Positions 1,545 to 40,646 of a DNA stretch of 40,646 bases are shown here, one piece after another. Numbering within the stretch: position 1 is the first letter of the stretch; the number at the start of each line of letters is the position of its first letter. The stretch comes from Candidatus Eiseniibacteriota bacterium (GTDB lineage Bacteria > Eisenbacteria > RBG-16-71-46): assembly GCA_031364845.1 (NCBI GenBank), contig JANLWX010000209.1, forward strand, positions 1 to 40,646. The letters are read 5' to 3'. The position numbers were made by a program, and so were the translations under genes. The notes under the pieces were generated by a model. The model worked only from the letters and a program-made list of their open reading frames with translations. It made no database searches and was not told the DNA's origin.

Positions 1545-4500
1545 TCACGGCGTCAGCGACACGCGCTTCGTCGTTCTCCTGCCGACCACGTCATATACCA
1601 CGAAATAGATCCCAGCGGGCGCCTTCGAGCCTGACTCCGTCAAACCATTCCACTGTGCGCGGTGCCGGCCTGCTCGAAGTGAGCCGTCGGCCAGTGTGCT
1701 CACGCGGCGTCCTTGAACGTCGGTGATGATGAGCCGGACTCCGCCTTCTCGAGCCACCGAGAATGCCACCGCGAGTTTGCCGCGCGTCGGGTTCGGGTGA
1801 ACCTCCGTCAGCAAGGACTCGGTGATGAGCTCGGTGGTGCGTACCTCGACCGGACCGAAAAATGCGTCCGGCGCATCGGGTTCCCGTACGCGAAGGCGAT
1901 ACCAGTGGACCGTCTCCGGACCCGAGATGCGGTCGATGACGGTGGTCAACTGCCCCTCGATCCGACGTTCCCCGGCGACCACGGTCCACGGGCCGCTGAG
2001 CGCCGGCCCGCGCTCCAGGACGAACTCGGCGCCTTGCGCCGAGCTGTCGAATTCCCATCGCACCTGGATGCCTTCAGCAAGGGGGCGGGCGTCGAACCGT
2101 AGAGGGCTCGACACGGCCGCCGTATTGATGGCGAATGTTGCTTGCAGAGTGTGATCGGCCCGGATGTTTTCGAATGTGTAGGTGCTGACGGCGCCGATCA
2201 TCACGCCATCCACCCGGACGCCGGTGCTGTGATATCCGGGATTCGGAACGATCGAGAACGTGATGTCGGAGTTGCACACCGCGCTCACGGTCTGGCCCTG
2301 GGGCTGGTACTCGTAGGCTCCGCGATCGCCATACGAAATGGGGCCGAGTCCCTGGTTGGCGATCGTGGGGTCGTCGACACGCGCAACTCCGGCGTAATCC
2401 GTCGCCGGCCACTCGGCCATGGAGGCGTCGGCATTGTCGATCGCGGGAGAGCCGGGCTGCAGATGGAAGTTCTCCAGAGCGGGATTTGCGAACAGAGGAT
2501 TCTGCTGGAGCGTCCGGCTGTCCTGGCTCGACACGGCGGAGTAGGCCGCGACGCTCGTATAGTTGGTCGATCCCCAGCGCACCACGGACCCCGCCGTGGA
2601 CTTCCACAGCACGTTCGAGTTGGAGCTGAACCCGGACATCGAGGTGGGATCCACGTGCAGGTCGTATGAACTCGTCGTGAGACCGTTTTCGACGGAGATG
2701 CAATCGTACACGCGGCCGTTCGATGACCCTCCCTCGAACGAGAAGCCGTCCTTGGTGTTCCCGAAGGCAACGTTGCCGATGTGCACGTTGCCGGTCGATC
2801 CGAGGTGGTCGTAGCCGTGGTCGCCGTTGTTCCATGACAGATTCTGAATCGAGAGGTTGTTGTTCGATCCGCTCGAGAAGTGATGTCCGGTGTCCTGATT
2901 GTGATGGATGTTGTTTCTCAGGACTTGATTGTTGGACGACCCTAAGAGGTGGATTCCGTTCGCGGCGCGCACCTGCGGTCGGGCATTGCGGAACGTCGCG
3001 TTGTCGGAAACCACGCAGAAGTTTGCACTGCTCAGCAGGATGCCATGATCGCCGTTGTCCGCGACGACGTTTCCGCGTACCGCGCAATTCGTCACCGTAT
3101 TCAGAGCGATGCCGTTGCTCCCGGCGAAGGTCGCCGTGTTGCCGACGATCTCGATGTTGCTCGAGCTCGACTGGGCGTAGATGGCCTTCTCGTTCGACCG
3201 GGTCACGTTGAACCCTTCGATGGTCACGTAGCTGCGTCCTTGCAGCCGAAATCCGTGGGTGCGGCGCGAAACCAGGAGCTGATGACTGCCCGGATTGCCA
3301 CCGTCTGCGTTCACATAGAGCCCGCTTCCCGAGACATAGCGGAAGCTGTTCGACGGCAGCGCCGTCGTCGCTGCCGTCGAGACCGTGAGGCGCACGCCGT
3401 CGAGGAACACCTGAGCCGGAGTCCAGTTCACAGAAGCGGCAAGCCATACGTTGCCGGAGTGAAGCACCCACAGGGGAGGACTGGAGAAGTCATCGCTGCC
3501 CTCCACGATGACGCCCGGCCCCGTGGCCTTGATCACGAAGGGACTTCCCGCAGCGCCGGAAACCGGCACGTTGACCTGTTCGCGATAGGTTGCGGGCATC
3601 ACGAGGATGGTCGTGCCGGGTCCACCCTGACTCACCGCGGCAGAGATCGAGCAAAAGGGCTGGAGGCTCGTGCCCGGCCCGGTGTTCGAGCAGACCGGAT
3701 TCGAACCGTCGACGTACAACGTCGGGCCCGCGATCTCCAGATCGGGGGCCGGCTGCTGCGGGACACTCGAGGTGATCGATCCGCCGGTACCCGCATAGGT
3801 CTCGACGGTGTAGACGTCGGGCGCAAAGATGGCGGTAATCGTGTGGTGCGCGGATACGTTCTCGAAGGTGTAGCTCGCCAGAGGGCCGACGGAAACCTGG
3901 TCGACCTCGACGTCGACGATGTGGTGACACGTCCCCGGGGTGATGGTGAACGTGCGATCGGAATCGAAAGCAACGCCCACGTCACCGCTTGGATCAATGG
4001 ATCCGCCCGACTCCGCGGTCGCGGTTATCGTGAACGCAGCGAGCGCGAAGCTGGCGGAGATCGTGTGAGGGGCGGTGACGTTCACGAACGTGTAGCTGGT
4101 CATCGCGCCCACCGACACACCGTCCACCACCACGTCGGCGACGCGGTAGTCCGGGTTGGCCGTGATGGTGAACAGTTGATCGGTGCCCTGACCGACCGTG
4201 ACTGCGCCGGCAGGTGCGATCGAACCATTGGCCCCCGCACTGGCGGTGATGACGTACGTGTTGATCGCGAACGTGGCGCTGATCGTGTGGTCGGTCGTGA
4301 CGTTGGTGAAGGTATAGCTCGACACGGCGCCCACGGACACGCCATCGGCCTTGACATCGGCGATGTGGTAGTTCGCGTCCGGTGTGATGGCAAACGTCTG
4401 AAAACCGCCGTAGGCGACCGCGACCGCACCGTTGGGAGTGATCGAGCCGTTGGGTCCGGCACTGGCCGTTATGGTGCGGGTGTTGATCGCGAACGTGGCG

Positions 4501-5015
4501 CTGATCGTGTGGTCGGCGGTGACGTTCGTGAAGGCGTAGCTCGTCACGGCGCCGACCGAAATGCCGTCCACCAGCACGTCAGCAACGTGATAGTTCGCGT
4601 CCGATGTGATGGTGAAGGTCTGAGCCGCGCCCGAGGCGACCGGGACCGTGCCGCTCGGCGCGATCGAGCCGTGCGCCCCGGCGCTCGCGGTGATCGTGTA
4701 GGTGTCGATCGCGAACGTGGCGCTGATCGTGTGGTCGGCCGTCACGTTCGTGAACGTGTGGCTCGTCACCGCACCCACGGACAGGCCGTCGACCAGCACG
4801 TCGGCGACGTGGTAGTTCACCTCCGGAGTGATGGTGAAGCTCTGATCGGCGCCGTCTTCGACCGTGACCGCGCCATCTGGAGCAATCGAGCCATTGGCCC
4901 CGGCGCTCGCGGTGATCGTGTGCGCAAAGACCTGTGCCACGGCTCCGATAGAACCGAAGCCAGTCAGCAACAAGGTCGTGAATCCGAGGGCGAAGAGCCT
5001 CTGTGGGAGCGTCAG
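1545..5015 (-). CDS. Large secreted protein: InlB-B/Flg_new-type repeats + right-handed parallel beta-helix + C-terminal FlgD-Ig/T9SS-like domain
   Basis: Five 74-aa repeats (TITASAGxNGSIxPxG...NYHVADVxVDG.SVGAVTSYTFTNVTADHTISATFA), an Asn/Gly-rich beta-helix (N.GDHG repeats; FHLQPGSPAIDNA...DRGAYEY) and a PNP...DVQGRRV...GIYFV C-terminus. Start is placed at the signal-peptide-like LTLPQRLFALGFTTLLLTG after GGAGG and is uncertain (the ORF is open to 5297). Confidence 0.8.
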   Translation of the reverse strand: MTLPQRLFALGFTTLLLTGFGSIGAVAQVFAHTITASAGANGSIAPDGAVTVEDGADQSFTITPEVNYHVADVLVDGLSVGAVTSHTFTNVTADHTISATFAIDTYTITASAGAHGSIAPSGTVPVASGAAQTFTITSDANYHVADVLVDGISVGAVTSYAFTNVTADHTISATFAINTRTITASAGPNGSITPNGAVAVAYGGFQTFAITPDANYHIADVKADGVSVGAVSSYTFTNVTTDHTISATFAINTYVITASAGANGSIAPAGAVTVGQGTDQLFTITANPDYRVADVVVDGVSVGAMTSYTFVNVTAPHTISASFALAAFTITATAESGGSIDPSGDVGVAFDSDRTFTITPGTCHHIVDVEVDQVSVGPLASYTFENVSAHHTITAIFAPDVYTVETYAGTGGSITSSVPQQPAPDLEIAGPTLYVDGSNPVCSNTGPGTSLQPFCSISAAVSQGGPGTTILVMPATYREQVNVPVSGAAGSPFVIKATGPGVIVEGSDDFSSPPLWVLHSGNVWLAASVNWTPAQVFLDGVRLTVSTAATTALPSNSFRYVSGSGLYVNADGGNPGSHQLLVSRRTHGFRLQGRSYVTIEGFNVTRSNEKAIYAQSSSSNIEIVGNTATFAGSNGIALNTVTNCAVRGNVVADNGDHGILLSSANFCVVSDNATFRNARPQVRAANGIHLLGSSNNQVLRNNIHHNQDTGHHFSSGSNNNLSIQNLSWNNGDHGYDHLGSTGNVHIGNVAFGNTKDGFSFEGGSSNGRVYDCISVENGLTTSSYDLHVDPTSMSGFSSNSNVLWKSTAGSVVRWGSTNYTSVAAYSAVSSQDSRTLQQNPLFANPALENFHLQPGSPAIDNADASMAEWPATDYAGVARVDDPTIANQGLGPISYGDRGAYEYQPQGQTVSAVCNSDITFSIVPNPGYHSTGVRVDGVMIGAVSTYTFENIRADHTLQATFAINTAAVSSPLRFDARPLAEGIQVRWEFDSSAQGAEFVLERGPALSGPWTVVAGERRIEGQLTTVIDRISGPETVHWYRLRVREPDAPDAFFGPVEVRTTELITESLLTEVHPNPTRGKLAVAFSVAREGGVRLIITDVQGRRVSTLADGSLRAGRHRAQWNGLTESGSKAPAGIYFVVYDVVGRRTTKRVSLTP
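3813..4923 (-). repeat. Five tandem InlB-B-like repeats, 222-nt period
   Basis: ccggcgctcgcggtgatcgtg recurs 222 nt apart; gatcgcgaacgtggcgctgatcgtgtggtc recurs at ~4263, ~4485 and ~4707. Confidence 0.85.
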
Positions 5016-5414
5016 GGAACCTCCTCGAGCCGAGTCCACGTCTCCACAGCCCGCGCGAATCGAGGCGCAGGCTCCCGAAACCGGGAGGCGGCATCGGGGT
5101 GCGGTCTCGTCGAGCCGAACTCGGTTGTCATTGCAGGATGCCAAAGCGGAGAGCTCAAGACCCGAACCAGGTCCGGCGCGCGGCGGGATACGAGGCGCGC
5201 GCGTAGAGCCTGACAAAACTATGCACGCTTTCGCTGAAGAAACCAATGGAATAGATGGGTCTGGTCCAGAGGATGGGGGGCACGGGGCGCGCCCCATGCC
5301 CGAACGCCTTACGGTACCGCGATTAATCCCAACGGTGTGGTTTCACCCAAGTTTGGTTCGAAGGAGGCCGCCCCGGTGGTCCGGCGTCTCAGCGGCACGC
5401 GGCCCCCGGACGCC

Positions 5415-36891: not shown

Positions 36892-37928
36892 AGCTCACTC
36901 ACGAGCCGCTCGCACTCGAGACGCAGTTCGAATTCCGCATCGCGGTCGGCGCGAAGCAGCGCCACGTGAACACACTGGTGACGCTCGAGCACGACGGCGT
37001 GACGGGGCACGGCGAAGCATCGCCGTCCCATTATTACGGCGAGAACGAAGCGCTCGTGCGCGTGGCGCTCGACACGTGGGCTCCGCACCTCGGCGACGAT
37101 CCGTTTGCGCTCGAGGCGATCGAGCGGAAACTCGATGGTGCGCTGCGCGGTAATGGTTCGGCGCATGCTGCGATCGAAATGGCACTGCACGATTGGATCG
37201 GCAAGAAGCTTGGGTACCCGGTGTGGAAGCTGCTCGGAATCGATCGCGCCACGACGCCGCTCTCGTGTGTCACGCTCGGCATGGCCTCGCCCGAGGAAAT
37301 GGAACGCAAGCTCGAAACCGTCGCCCACTTCCCGATGATCAAGGTCAAGCTCGGCGGACCGGGCGATGTCGACAACCTGCGTCGCATCCGGCGCCGCTTC
37401 ACGGGCAAACTGCGTGTGGACGCGAACACCGCCTGGAGCCCGCACGACGCGGTGCACGTGCTGCGCGAGATCGCGCCGCTCGACATCGAGCTGTGCGAGC
37501 AACCGGTGCCGCGCCATGATCTCGACGGCCTGCGTTTCGTGCACGAGCGCAGCCCGATTCCGATCTTCGCCGACGAAAGCATTCATCACGCGGGCGACCT
37601 CGCGAATCTCAAGGGGCGCGTCAGCGGCGTGAACCTCAAGATCATGAAGAGTGGCGGGATTCGCGAAATGCTGCGCACGATTCACGGGGCGCGCGCGCTC
37701 GGCATGCAGGTGATGCTCGGCTCGATGGTGGAATCGAGCCTCGCGCTGTCGGCGGCCGCCCAGCTCGCGCCGCTCGCCGACTATCTCGATCTCGATGGCC
37801 ACTGGCTGCTGCGCGACGATCCGTTCGAAGGCGCGCCGGGCGAGGCGGGCCACATCGAACTGTCCGACCGTCCCGGGCTCGGCGTGACTCCGTCCACCGT
37901 GCGCGCGGGCGCGGATCTGCGCCGTTGA
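36888..37928 (+). CDS. Dipeptide epimerase / DgcA-like racemase (enolase superfamily)
   Basis: IKVKLG, RVDAN, EQP, ADES, NLKIMKSGG, DLDG motif; ATGA overlap with DUF1611. Confidence 0.9.
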   Translation: MKLTHEPLALETQFEFRIAVGAKQRHVNTLVTLEHDGVTGHGEASPSHYYGENEALVRVALDTWAPHLGDDPFALEAIERKLDGALRGNGSAHAAIEMALHDWIGKKLGYPVWKLLGIDRATTPLSCVTLGMASPEEMERKLETVAHFPMIKVKLGGPGDVDNLRRIRRRFTGKLRVDANTAWSPHDAVHVLREIAPLDIELCEQPVPRHDLDGLRFVHERSPIPIFADESIHHAGDLANLKGRVSGVNLKIMKSGGIREMLRTIHGARALGMQVMLGSMVESSLALSAAAQLAPLADYLDLDGHWLLRDDPFEGAPGEAGHIELSDRPGLGVTPSTVRAGADLRR

Positions 37929-39367
37929 GCTTTCGCCTCAAATGCTACATCGCGGCGATCGCCGCCGTGGCCCTGGGGCTGGTGATCGTCTTCGCCCCGG
38001 GTGACCTCGCGACGCGCTGGCCGCACTATCTCGGCTGGGTCGTCATCTGCGTGGTGTCCGAGGGACTGTGGGTCTCGACGTTCTCGGGCACCGGCACCGT
38101 CACGATGGCGTCCACCGCCGGCCTCGCGACCGCGATGCTGTGGGGACGCGGGGCCTCGATGATCATCGTGGTCGCAAGCACGGCGATCGCCGAGCTGTTC
38201 GTTCTGCGCAAACCGCCGATCCGCGTGTTCTTCAACTCGAGTCAGATTGCCATCACGATGTGGTTCGCGGCGAGCGCCTTCGAGCTGCTCGGCGGATTTC
38301 CGAACGGACTGTTCGGTGCGGCGACCGTCGGCACCGGAGACGGTGTCGCGCTGCGGCTTGCGCTGCCGACCGTGGGGATGCTTGCGGCCTACCTGCTCGC
38401 CAATCGCGCGCTGGTCGCGGTCGCGGTGTCGTGGTCGACCGAACGCTCCTATCTCAAAGTGTTGCGCGAGGACTGGTTCACCGTCGAGCGCCTCCTTCAG
38501 GATCTCTCGGCCTTCCTGTTGAGCCCGCTCATGGTCATCTCGTTCGTTTCGATCGGTTACTCGGGCGTGCTGCTGTTCTTCGCGCCGCTGTGGCTGCTCA
38601 ACGAATCCGCGAAACGCTACCTCGAACTCCAGCGCGCGCAGAATCAGGTGATTCACAGCGAGCGCATGGCGGCCAAAGGCGAAATGGCGGCGGAGGTGGG
38701 GCACGAGCTGCGCAACCAACTCGCCGCGATCAGCGGACGCGCGCAGATGCTGCTGCGCGATGCCGACAAACAGAACTACGCGAACCTCAACCGCCACGCG
38801 CAGATCATTCTCGATCAGTCGCAGCGCATGGAACGCCTGTCGAAGGGCCTCATGGAATTCTCCGGCGCCGAGCCCAAGATGGAGCGTGTCGACGTCAACG
38901 CCCTGCTCCAGCGCACGATCGAGTTCGTGCGCACGCAGAACCGCTTCGACGGCGTCGAGTGGGACGTGCAGCTGTGTGAGCCGCCCCCTGAACTGCGCGC
39001 CGACCCCGGCCAGCTCCAGCAGGTGCTGCTGAACCTGTTCATGAACGCCGCCGACGCGATGAGGGCCGACGCGAACGGCGCAGGACCACCGAAGAAGCTG
39101 ATCACCGTCATCACCGAGCGCGACGACCGCGCGGGCACGCTGCGCTGCATCGTCAAAGACACCGGCCCCGGAATCCCGGCGTCCAATCTGGTCAAGATCT
39201 TCGAGCCGCATTTCACGACCAAAGCCGACGGCCACGGCTTCGGATTGTCGACGTCGTATCGCATCGTCGGCAGCCATGGTGGCCGCATCGGCGTCGAGAG
39301 CCCGATTGGGCACGGCGCGACGTTCACCGTGTCGCTGCCGCTCGGAGGACCCGGCTCGTGGACCTGA
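37925..39367 (+). CDS. Membrane-embedded sensor histidine kinase
   Basis: Multi-TM N-terminus; H-box GEMAAEVGHELRN, N-box QQVLLNLFMNAADA, DTGPGI, IFEPHFTTK, GFGLS; TTGA overlap with the previous gene. Confidence 0.9.
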   Translation: MSFRLKCYIAAIAAVALGLVIVFAPGDLATRWPHYLGWVVICVVSEGLWVSTFSGTGTVTMASTAGLATAMLWGRGASMIIVVASTAIAELFVLRKPPIRVFFNSSQIAITMWFAASAFELLGGFPNGLFGAATVGTGDGVALRLALPTVGMLAAYLLANRALVAVAVSWSTERSYLKVLREDWFTVERLLQDLSAFLLSPLMVISFVSIGYSGVLLFFAPLWLLNESAKRYLELQRAQNQVIHSERMAAKGEMAAEVGHELRNQLAAISGRAQMLLRDADKQNYANLNRHAQIILDQSQRMERLSKGLMEFSGAEPKMERVDVNALLQRTIEFVRTQNRFDGVEWDVQLCEPPPELRADPGQLQQVLLNLFMNAADAMRADANGAGPPKKLITVITERDDRAGTLRCIVKDTGPGIPASNLVKIFEPHFTTKADGHGFGLSTSYRIVGSHGGRIGVESPIGHGATFTVSLPLGGPGSWT

Positions 39368-40311
39368 CCGCCGACGTCGTCCGCGTCGACTTCGGCGGAT
39401 GCATCCTGATGCGCGACGACGGTTCGCTCGCCGAGGCGACCGCGCGCGGCAAGCTGATGGGCCCGCGCAAGTCGCTCGGCAACACGGTCGTCGTCGGCGA
39501 CCGCGTGGGCTGTGCGCTCGAAGGCGAACGCATCCTGATCGAGGACGTCGAACCGCGCCGCAATGCATTCAGCCGCCGCGCTCCCGGCAATCATCCGATC
39601 GAACAGGTCGTCGCCGCGAACCTCGACCAGGTCGTGTGCGTCGCATCGGTCGCGGAGCCGGACTTCAAAGCCGGATTCGCCGACCGCGTGTTGTCGCAGG
39701 CTCAGCATCTCGGAATCCCGGCCGTGCTCGCGCTCACCAAGATCGATCTCGCGCCCGCCTCCGAAGCCGAAGCCCTGCTCGGTGACTACCGCCGTGCAGG
39801 TTTCACGGTGCACGCGATCAGCGCGCAGACCGGCGCGGGAGTCGAGACGATGCGCGAGTCCGCTCGCGGACACCGCAGCCTGTTCGTCGGACATTCCGGC
39901 GTGGGGAAGAGCACGCTGCTGAACGCGCTGGTCCCCGGCCTCGAACTGCTGGCCGGCGTCGTGAATCCCAAAACACAGAAAGGCCGCCACACGACCACCG
40001 CCGCATGGCTCGTGCGTCCCGAGCCCGGATTCGATCTCATCGACACGCCCGGTGTTCGCGCATTCGGCCTGTGGGGCGTGGGCTCCGAGAACATCGATCA
40101 GACCTACCCCGAATTCGGCGCGCATCTCGGCCACTGCCGCTTTGCCGACTGCCGCCATCTCAACGAGCCCGGCTGCGCCGTGCGCGCCGCCGTCGGCAAA
40201 GACATCGCCGCGCGGCGCTTCGATTCGTTCTTGAAGCTGCGTGAAGAACTGCTGCGCGAAGAGTCGCACCAGATCGAGAAGATTCGCGCGAACACGCGAT
40301 ATCGGAGGTAG
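39358..40311 (+). CDS. rsgA: Ribosome small subunit-dependent GTPase A
   Basis: VVGDRV, TKID, GHSGVGKSTLLN, KGRHTTT, IDTPG, Zn finger CRFADCRHLNEPGCAV. Confidence 0.95.
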   Translation: MDLTADVVRVDFGGCILMRDDGSLAEATARGKLMGPRKSLGNTVVVGDRVGCALEGERILIEDVEPRRNAFSRRAPGNHPIEQVVAANLDQVVCVASVAEPDFKAGFADRVLSQAQHLGIPAVLALTKIDLAPASEAEALLGDYRRAGFTVHAISAQTGAGVETMRESARGHRSLFVGHSGVGKSTLLNALVPGLELLAGVVNPKTQKGRHTTTAAWLVRPEPGFDLIDTPGVRAFGLWGVGSENIDQTYPEFGAHLGHCRFADCRHLNEPGCAVRAAVGKDIAARRFDSFLKLREELLREESHQIEKIRANTRYRR

Positions 40312-40352
40312 GGGCAGGTCGGGTAGGCCTTCGCTTCCGGCCCCTCACGCAT

Positions 40353-40510
40353 TCACCGCGACGACGCTAACGTCACTGCGGGTTCTCGATCGGCCGTTCT
40401 GGCCGCCGCTGCGCGCCTCTCTCTGGTCACGCGCTTCGCTTCGTCCCGCTTGCGCGCCATGAACCCCGCGCCAAACGTTTGCTCCGCTTCGTACTGGTTG
40501 TGTGTCCGGC
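40353..40510 (-). pseudogene. 3' fragment of a probable HNH endonuclease-family gene, interrupted by the intron
   Basis: Reads (C)RTHNQYEAEQTFGAGFMARKRDEAKR...*, with coding-like GC-rich third positions. It resembles the CRxHNQYxAExxFG tail of HNH proteins (recognised from memory, not searched). Confidence 0.55.
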
Positions 40511-40646
40511 TTGCGACAGGCAAAGCCTGAGAAAGGGGGATTCGCTGATGAAGCGGTGAAACCTTTCGCTGGAACCCTGCAGGTAACCAGTCCTGCCCGG
40601 TCAAGGCTGGCAACCAACCGGAACCGAGTGTTGCGTGGTCGGAGGG
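40511..40646 (+). mobile_element. 5' end (domain I) of a bacterial group II intron, truncated by the window edge
   Basis: Begins TTGCGACAG (GUGYG variant). Stacked hairpins CAGGC-AAA-GCCTG, GAAAGG/CCTTTC, GCAGG-TAACCAGT-CCTGC, then CCGG...ACCGGAACCGAGTGTTGCGTGG, typical of domain I in bacterial IIB-like (class E/F) introns. Alternative start GTGTG at 40500. Confidence 0.72.

Follow-up and report, generated by a model that had tools for sequence, protein, structure and literature searches.

A class E-type group II intron inserted antisense to the C-x-x-H motif of HNH-like genes

The insertion locus and its HNH-like gene

The window, i.e., the whole stretch of DNA analyzed (40,646 nucleotides), is contig C70 of the source genome, G000, a fragmented bin of 233 contigs with 3.66% contamination, and its end is the contig end. 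The last host gene before the insertion is rsgA (ribosome small-subunit GTPase; 39358..40311, plus strand; PF03193, 160 bits), which overlaps with a MASE9-histidine kinase gene in an ordinary conserved operon (37925-40311). Next come the 3' end of an HNH-like gene on the minus strand (40353..40510), reading C|RTHNQYEAEQTFG...stop and cut inside the Cys codon, and, on the plus strand, the first part of a group II intron of class E type (40511..40646), which starts with UUGCG and covers part of domain I before the contig end cuts it off. The 5' part of the HNH-like gene is absent from the assembly, and a search of 40200-40646 for a sigma-70 promoter or a terminator gave no match. On the minus strand, the frame that ends at 40511 reads SRTHNQYEAEQTFGAGFMARKRDEAK...ASSR*, and TTGCGACAG starts at the same base on the plus strand; an A at 40511 would give the Cys codon TGC. 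The original prediction had singled out this Ser/Cys difference, and the reading frame and the intron start were indeed both found there.

In five of five relatives, rsgA is directly followed by the gene for threonine synthase with no HNH gene between them, so the HNH unit is a lineage-specific insertion inside the host operon, on the opposite strand. The threonine synthase gene of G000 lies on contig C48 and is cut at the contig end. The window intron is sense to the histidine kinase-rsgA operon, so that splicing is possible in the operon transcript, unlike in the HNH mRNA. The earlier claim that it could not be spliced out of the HNH mRNA thus stands, the intron being antisense to that gene, with the refinement that it is sense to the rsgA operon transcript; read-through from rsgA is the likely source of its transcription.

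A search for intact copies of the interrupted gene elsewhere in the genome had been suggested, and G000 turned out to hold 13 uninterrupted paralogues with the motif, besides six junctions. Complete paralogues have about 350-460 residues and align over the motifs QCTF...RC, FDH, and CRxHN, which we take to be the C..C, DH, and CxxHN metal ligands; the middle Asn of the HNH motif is substituted in many members, with just 3 of 15 rows retaining it. All three full-length paralogues searched matched PF01844 below its cut-off (12-17 bits versus 21.4; E 0.006-0.19), and the N-terminal part on contig C110 did not match it. In the top Atlas clusters, PF01844 is found in 23-65% of the members, and the neighboring clusters are HNH clusters; no relative of solved structure was found by sequence. 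We regard the family as HNH-like and its members as putative nucleases. A 207-nt junction query matched 34 of 60 other genomes, in all but two only through its HNH part, and the HNH-like family is common in relatives. After the Cys, the G000 paralogues have tails of two types, short (33-43 residues, 8/13) or long (141-155 residues, 5/13), the long ones with a RuvA-C-like end (Atlas). The window gene has 52 residues after the Cys versus 148 in its closest paralogue, on C224, the likeness ending after 131 nt. The intron would inactivate the HNH gene, and the window copy already has a short 3' end.

Copies of the intron, the complete element, and its class

The 136 nt from 40511 onward recur with 100% identity at the ends of contigs C224 (136 nt), C163 (134 nt), and C34 (114 nt), while in the 72 nt preceding the junction only 49-64 positions are identical among the four sites. 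Each of the four contigs carries the antisense 3' end of a different HNH paralogue before the junction, cut at the same Cys codon. Since an intron that is identical at four contig ends follows diverged flanks and breaks the same codon, the junction at 40511 is not a product of chance, and the window contig breaks at 40646 because the intron is a repeat. With four paralogues occupied at one codon, the suggestion that a multicopy HNH family would offer a reusable site was borne out.

Domains V/VI were matched seven times in G000, two of the matches sitting at the ends of contigs C110 and C165. The 3' ends of the intron on these two contigs are identical over 137 nt and end in ...CACCCGGC, followed by an A. 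Beyond the A, the other strand reads ...GGEATIDGMRLRC (...GMRLRC) and ...GGAATIDNVRIRC (...NVRIRC), respectively, i.e., the N-terminal part of an HNH protein, and the two 3' exons diverge after their first base. A 3' exon starting with A and restoring the ...RC frame had been predicted, and at both contigs the A at +1, lying downstream of domains V/VI, does restore the HNH frame. The 5' and 3' junctions at the contig ends place the insertion between the T and the GC of the Cys codon, with no duplication; the antisense position inside that codon is shared by four HNH paralogues and the two matching 3' ends. All six G000 junctions fall within HNH genes. Neither C110 nor C165 is the 3' partner of the window, as synteny points to C48 (threonine synthase), and the window's own 3' junction and reverse transcriptase (RT) were not found in the G000 assembly.

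DNA searches of 60 genomes of relatives and of 205 genomes of the phylum brought up no other copies in HNH genes. The junction pattern matched in 19 other genomes, once each, which is the level of the reversed control, and none of the 19 loci continues as a window-type intron. In the sampled data, the window-type junction is thus confined to one genome and two metagenome contigs.

Two scans with the intron-start pattern gave at least 238 junctions with at least 209 distinct 5' exons. Among the matches listed, two metagenome loci, L074 and L037, are near-twins of the window intron (97% identity at the 5' end; next best, 82%). L037 holds a complete intron of 1918 nt (720-2637) with domain I, RT, and domains V/VI, from which the full length of the window intron is judged to be about 1918 nt. 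The model RF02005 (group II D1-D4) scored 143 bits on L037 and 140 on L074 (cut-off, 49); in the window, it gave no match at the Rfam gathering score and a partial match cut at the contig end (40587-40646; 20.9 bits; E 5e-4). The predicted group II intron at 40511 is thereby upheld by this partial match and by the full matches on its near-identical relatives. The domain V model RF00029 scored 38.4-39.4 bits on C110, C165, and L037, just below its cut-off of 40 (E 1e-4 to 9e-6; 39.4 on L037), and the domain V/VI fold of these sequences has an AGC triad, a 2-nt bulge, and a domain VI hairpin with a bulged A. The RT/maturase open reading frame of L037 (1229-2545) encodes 439 aa matching TIGR04416 with 343 bits (cut-off, 300); in Pfam it matches RVT_1 only, with no endonuclease domain. 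The forecast of an RT/maturase and domains V/VI beyond the junction thus came true in part: both are present in L037 and domains V/VI on C110 and C165, and the window contig itself carries neither.

A window-type RT is not present in G000, and the two RTs found there belong to other introns. A second multicopy intron of this genome is found at C61 (68185-70205) and at ends of C141, C171, and C233, with four identical 3' ends; on C61 a different intron, complete and with an open frame of 493 residues, comes directly after it in tandem, and we presume this second one to be class C-like. A third, single-copy class E-related intron, starting with GTGCG, lies on the minus strand of C229 (about 3350-5280; L030), with an uninterrupted HNH paralogue on the same strand about 200 nt downstream.

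The intron body missing from the bin nevertheless exists, since run contigs with the window's four diagnostic alleles tile L037. The run contig covering L037 719-1149 has 11 differences from it, including the four diagnostic bases; overlapping run contigs tile 719-2455 and, with a joint, reach 2563, and an X2 contig covers 2566-2638. The gap at 2456-2562, which one contig bridges, reflects divergence below the likeness limit. Because X1 may be the source sample and X2 and X3 come from the same study, the run contigs complete the element but give no independent support; runs X4-X20, which have small shares, do not count as evidence. Of the 26 differences listed between the window-type reading frame and that of L037, 18 are synonymous, 8 are non-synonymous, and none is a stop.

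The two near-twins differ in their hosts. L074, from an unrelated metagenome, occupies the same HNH site (RAHNQY), while L037 lies antisense in an IS256 transposase gene, where it interrupts E-Q-R-C|W-N-H-K inside the Cys codon, again in the same phase, the host motif being the CxxH motif beside the DDE site of the transposase. The same runs contain such an IS256 free of the intron (joint 717-2636); in G000, no IS256 of this kind was found. Viral contigs gave only one relative, at 47%. HNH genes are thus a homing site in the sense proposed originally, being reused in four paralogues and in L074, but the site is not HNH-specific, given the near-twin in the IS256 CxxH motif.

The junctions also bear on the idea that a single insertion was copied among the paralogues as the HNH unit moved or underwent gene conversion. 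This unit does look mobile, being multicopy and missing between rsgA and threonine synthase in all five relatives, but the identity falls from 100% to 49-64 of 72 positions exactly at the junction, the two 3' exons diverge from their second base, and run contigs start at -1 and end at +1 (719-1149 and 2566-2638), as expected if the flanks branch at once. We consider such copying extremely improbable and largely refuted. Identical copies in diverged sites would point to recent mobility of the intron.

Judged by its sequence, the intron is endonuclease-less, class E-type, and IIB-like. The L037 RT is 28-34% identical to the RTs of Ni.ha.I1 (g3/F), B.th.I3 (g2), and Sr.me.I2 (g1), references for class F/g1-g3 chosen from Table S2 in the available part of PMC3552965, and falls outside their clade, so class F was rejected. 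The identity is 35% to RmInt1 and 46% over 316 residues to the disrupted RT of pRmeGR4b. In a quick tree of 18 rows, the L037 RT and the pRmeGR4b RT group together (SH-aLRT 98) as a sister to RmInt1/class D, an assignment to class E that rests on one reference RT in a tree without g4 or basal class F references. The pRmeGR4b RT presumably belongs to S.me.I4, the class E intron named in the accessible text of PMC5894124, and classes D and E also group as sisters in the part of PMC3552965 at hand. Domain V has a 5-nt loop, GAAAU, and such a loop is common to IIE and IIF introns according to the available portion of PMC3753933, where IIE introns are further described as having alpha' at a stem-loop tip and an extra DId3 bulge. 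The window-type ends are UUGCG...GC rather than the canonical GUGYG...AY, and 19 of 19 complete UUGCG relatives among the matches listed end in GGC, GGT, or AGC.

Target recognition and site choice

The exon-binding sequences (EBS) were located by covariation over 154 junctions offering 300 nt on the intron side and 20 nt on the exon side, taken from the matches listed after duplicates were dropped; the rows are related rather than independent, and the registers obtained are the expected antiparallel ones. In this set, L037 942-945 (EBS1) covaries with exon positions -1 to -4 (76-82% Watson-Crick pairs versus 28-32% expected; 137-138 of 154 rows), with weaker complementarity of 946-947 to -5/-6. 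EBS2, at 916-919, covaries with -9 to -12 (54-77% versus 27-28% expected; 107 distinct rows of the matches listed), where anchored counting over the 107 rows adds 919/-12 to 916-918/-9 to -11 and excludes 915, and EBS3, at 1009, covaries with +1 (84% versus 34% expected; 19 rows of the matches listed). EBS1 is GUCAGA in L074 and in the window-type intron (as read from run contigs) and GUUGGA, i.e., changed at two bases, in L037; EBS2 (CAUA) and EBS3 (U) are the same in all three.

Mapped onto the host motif, EBS3 and the first two bases of EBS1 read the Cys codon, and EBS2 reads the His codon plus the next base. In the window, the intron-binding sequence IBS1 (TCCGGC; 40505..40510, plus strand) is the antisense of the Cys-Arg-Thr codons, and IBS2 (TGTG; 40499..40502, plus strand) is that of the His codon extended by one base into the Asn codon. 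Complementarity of the flank to EBS1 and EBS2, which had been anticipated, is present, with 4/4 pairs for EBS2 and an imperfect 5/6 for EBS1 (one G-U pair and one A-C mismatch, at -4). At C34, C163, C224, and L074, EBS1 makes 4/6 pairs; the A-C mismatch at -4 occurs in all five HNH sites, where EBS2 pairs 4/4 and EBS3 1/1. At the IS256 site of L037, EBS1 pairs 6/6. Family-wide, among the matches listed, 66 of 83 distinct EBS1 pairings have 5 or 6 pairs, and position 4 is paired in 88%. Exons antisense to C-x-x-H are those of L074 and L037 only (2 of the 209 distinct exons among the matches listed), so the CxxH target belongs to this sub-lineage.

Other sites recur among the related introns. 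In the UUGCG class E family, 21 of the 209 distinct 5' exons among the matches listed end in CTGACR or CGGACG, mostly behind CYAAC/AACAA (L032, L046, L051, L058, L089, L107, and others); exons of this type presumably resemble integron attC sites. Six RTs with attC-like exons form one clade in the tree, possibly a class E lineage that targets attC. In Chromatiaceae, related introns (L157, L158, L160, L164, L184, L185, L204, L207, L211, and L220) repeatedly come after ...GCCTTGRTCATCGKTYGG, which in purple sulfur bacteria is a dispersed repeat, and relatives starting with GTGCG are found, within single genomes, at two or three diverged copies of the same site (L289, L291, and L294 in G063; L288 and L292 in G070).

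At least 94 empty sites in G000 pair as well as the occupied ones, and only 5 of them are HNH paralogues (a script flagged 9 by the CxxHN pattern, of which 4 turned out on inspection not to be family members). This count, made with a five-base EBS2 (GCAUA), is a lower bound, since 915/-8 does not covary. EBS pairing alone therefore does not explain the preference for HNH genes: the occupied sites are HNH in 4 of 4 cases, while HNH genes make up 9 of the 98 equally pairing sites (p about 3e-5), so something besides pairing selects the site. The extra selector could be either protein contacts, as all six sites share a T at -13, or purging of other insertions. A palindrome of the HNH family was ruled out as part of the target, lying 250-1280 nt away from the site. 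Three post hoc comparisons of occupied sites with empty paralogues gave weak differences: at least 4 EBS1 pairs (4/4 versus 5/13; p 0.053), a convergent host gene (3-4/4 versus 8/13; p 0.21 at best), and positive GC skew (4/4 versus 7/13; p 0.14), which is confounded by coding bias.

The imperfect pairing raises the main rival reading, which is not exclusive with repeated retrohoming. The HNH genes would be secondary (ectopic) sites, the cognate target would be better paired (TCTGAC before A, antisense of C-Q-x-H), e.g., an IS256-like transposase gene on another replicon or in another host, and only insertions in dispensable HNH genes would have survived selection. The constant A-C mismatch at -4, the mostly 4/6 EBS1 pairs, the 6/6 pairs of the twin in IS256, the intron-free IS256 in the same runs, and the empty state of the 94 other compatible sites, as selection would predict, all fit this account. 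On the other hand, L074, from an unrelated metagenome, again combines this EBS1 with this HNH site, G000 holds no IS256 of that kind, 0/6 of its junctions fall outside HNH genes, and insertions sense to ordinary genes could presumably splice and would need no purging. On balance, we think it rather unlikely that the HNH sites are ectopic.

The same registers bear on an artefactual origin, with a repeat mis-joined to HNH genes or several strains merged in one bin and no cell carrying several copies. G000 is a fragmented bin with 3.66% contamination, four 5' ends stand against only two 3' ends, and read depth gives no copy number, as a single-copy control is lacking. However, at six contig ends of G000 and on two unrelated public contigs the junction is precise to the base and keeps to one codon phase, it obeys the EBS registers, and strain mixing would alter the copy number per cell, not the targeting. 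We therefore hold an artefact to be very improbable.

Proposed mechanism and relation to known introns

The reading we favor, and consider probable, is repeated retrohoming of a recently active class E-type intron into the non-coding strand of the HNH motif. The intron would be transcribed from the strand opposite the HNH gene, here most likely by read-through from rsgA; the nearest upstream host gene is co-directional with the intron at C70, C34, C224, and L074 and not clearly so at C163, and at L037, in IS256, both flanking genes are antisense to it. As expected for its class, the intron RNA would splice out with the RT/maturase and form an RNP, whose EBS1 (GUCAGA), EBS2 (CAUA), and EBS3 (U) are predicted, from the covariation registers and computed pairing, to pair with the antisense C-R-x-H-N codons. 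Reverse splicing would take place after the first base of the Cys codon, where the junction lies at four 5' and two 3' contig ends. The cDNA would be primed without an endonuclease, probably at replication forks, as the available parts of the literature describe for endonuclease-less introns (PMC8632793, PMC8919778). The HNH gene would be knocked out and the host transcript repaired by splicing, and the same recognition frame with two EBS1 changes would fit the IS256 CxxH motif. Since protein selection preserves their Cys, Arg, and His codons, dispersed paralogues would be renewable, near-neutral landing sites.

More tentatively, and with less than even confidence, we propose a class E sub-lineage specialized on DNA antisense to the C-x-x-H metal-binding motifs in mobile nucleases. 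Here, EBS2 would be fixed on the His codon and EBS3 with two EBS1 bases on the Cys codon, while the EBS1 bases facing the middle residues would change and switch the intron between HNH and IS256. Such an element would live off host read-through, restore host transcripts, and permanently disable the other parasite.

The window-type intron resembles the class E intron of pRmeGR4b in RT clade, RF02005 match, lack of an endonuclease domain, 5-nt domain V loop, and use of EBS1, EBS2, and EBS3; it differs in its ends (UUGCG...GC versus GUGYG...AY), in an EBS2 of four covarying bases, and in its target, the antisense strand of a CxxH metal-binding motif. Like RmInt1 (class D), which homes into ISRm2011-2 and close homologues, it is endonuclease-less, colonizes several copies of a repeated mobile element, and may curb that element (PMC8632793, PMC5894124). 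Unlike RmInt1, to which its RT is 35% identical and which interrupts a transposase gene, with splicing from the transposase transcript being discussed in the accessible text, it lies on the opposite strand of its HNH-like host, at sites only 68-89% alike. It shares with group IIC-attC introns the strand opposite the host element and a dispersed repeated site, but IIC introns read a DNA hairpin and do so without EBS2, while the window-type intron reads codons by EBS1, EBS2, and EBS3 (PMC7923331). Non-canonical ends are found also in UHB.I2 of class CL1 (UUGCG..GU), which differs in its RT class, integron context, and same orientation as the cassettes (PMC7923331). The CxxH motif whose Cys codon (E-Q-R-C-W-N-H-K) is split in L037 is described for IS256/Mutator elements (C262/H265 in ISCth4) as part of the transposase active site, and in the text at hand not in connection with intron targeting (PMC7780238).

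Group II introns in transposase genes and other mobile DNA, colonization of several copies, and antisense insertion at attC are all known from the accessible portions of PMC7306698, PMC8632793, and PMC7923331. A group II intron antisense in HNH genes, or a switch between HNH and IS256 CxxH motifs, was not found in the literature covered, which mostly leaves out subscription papers; the supplements of PMC7306698 may bear on this novelty. The intron is real, and it is a new target-site variant of a known intron class. The available part of PMC3753933 deals with class E splicing only and reports EBS2 as dispensable for it, suggesting a role in homing; no characterization of class E mobility was found in the literature covered. 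With 4 occupied sites, 13 empty paralogues, and about 90 unrelated compatible sites in G000, what picks class E targets besides EBS pairing becomes directly testable. L037 and L074 amount to a natural retargeting experiment, in which two EBS1 bases separate two unrelated nuclease families that share one convergent motif. More generally, a site-specific retroelement may keep safe targets by using the antisense of codons that protein selection fixes in selfish genes.
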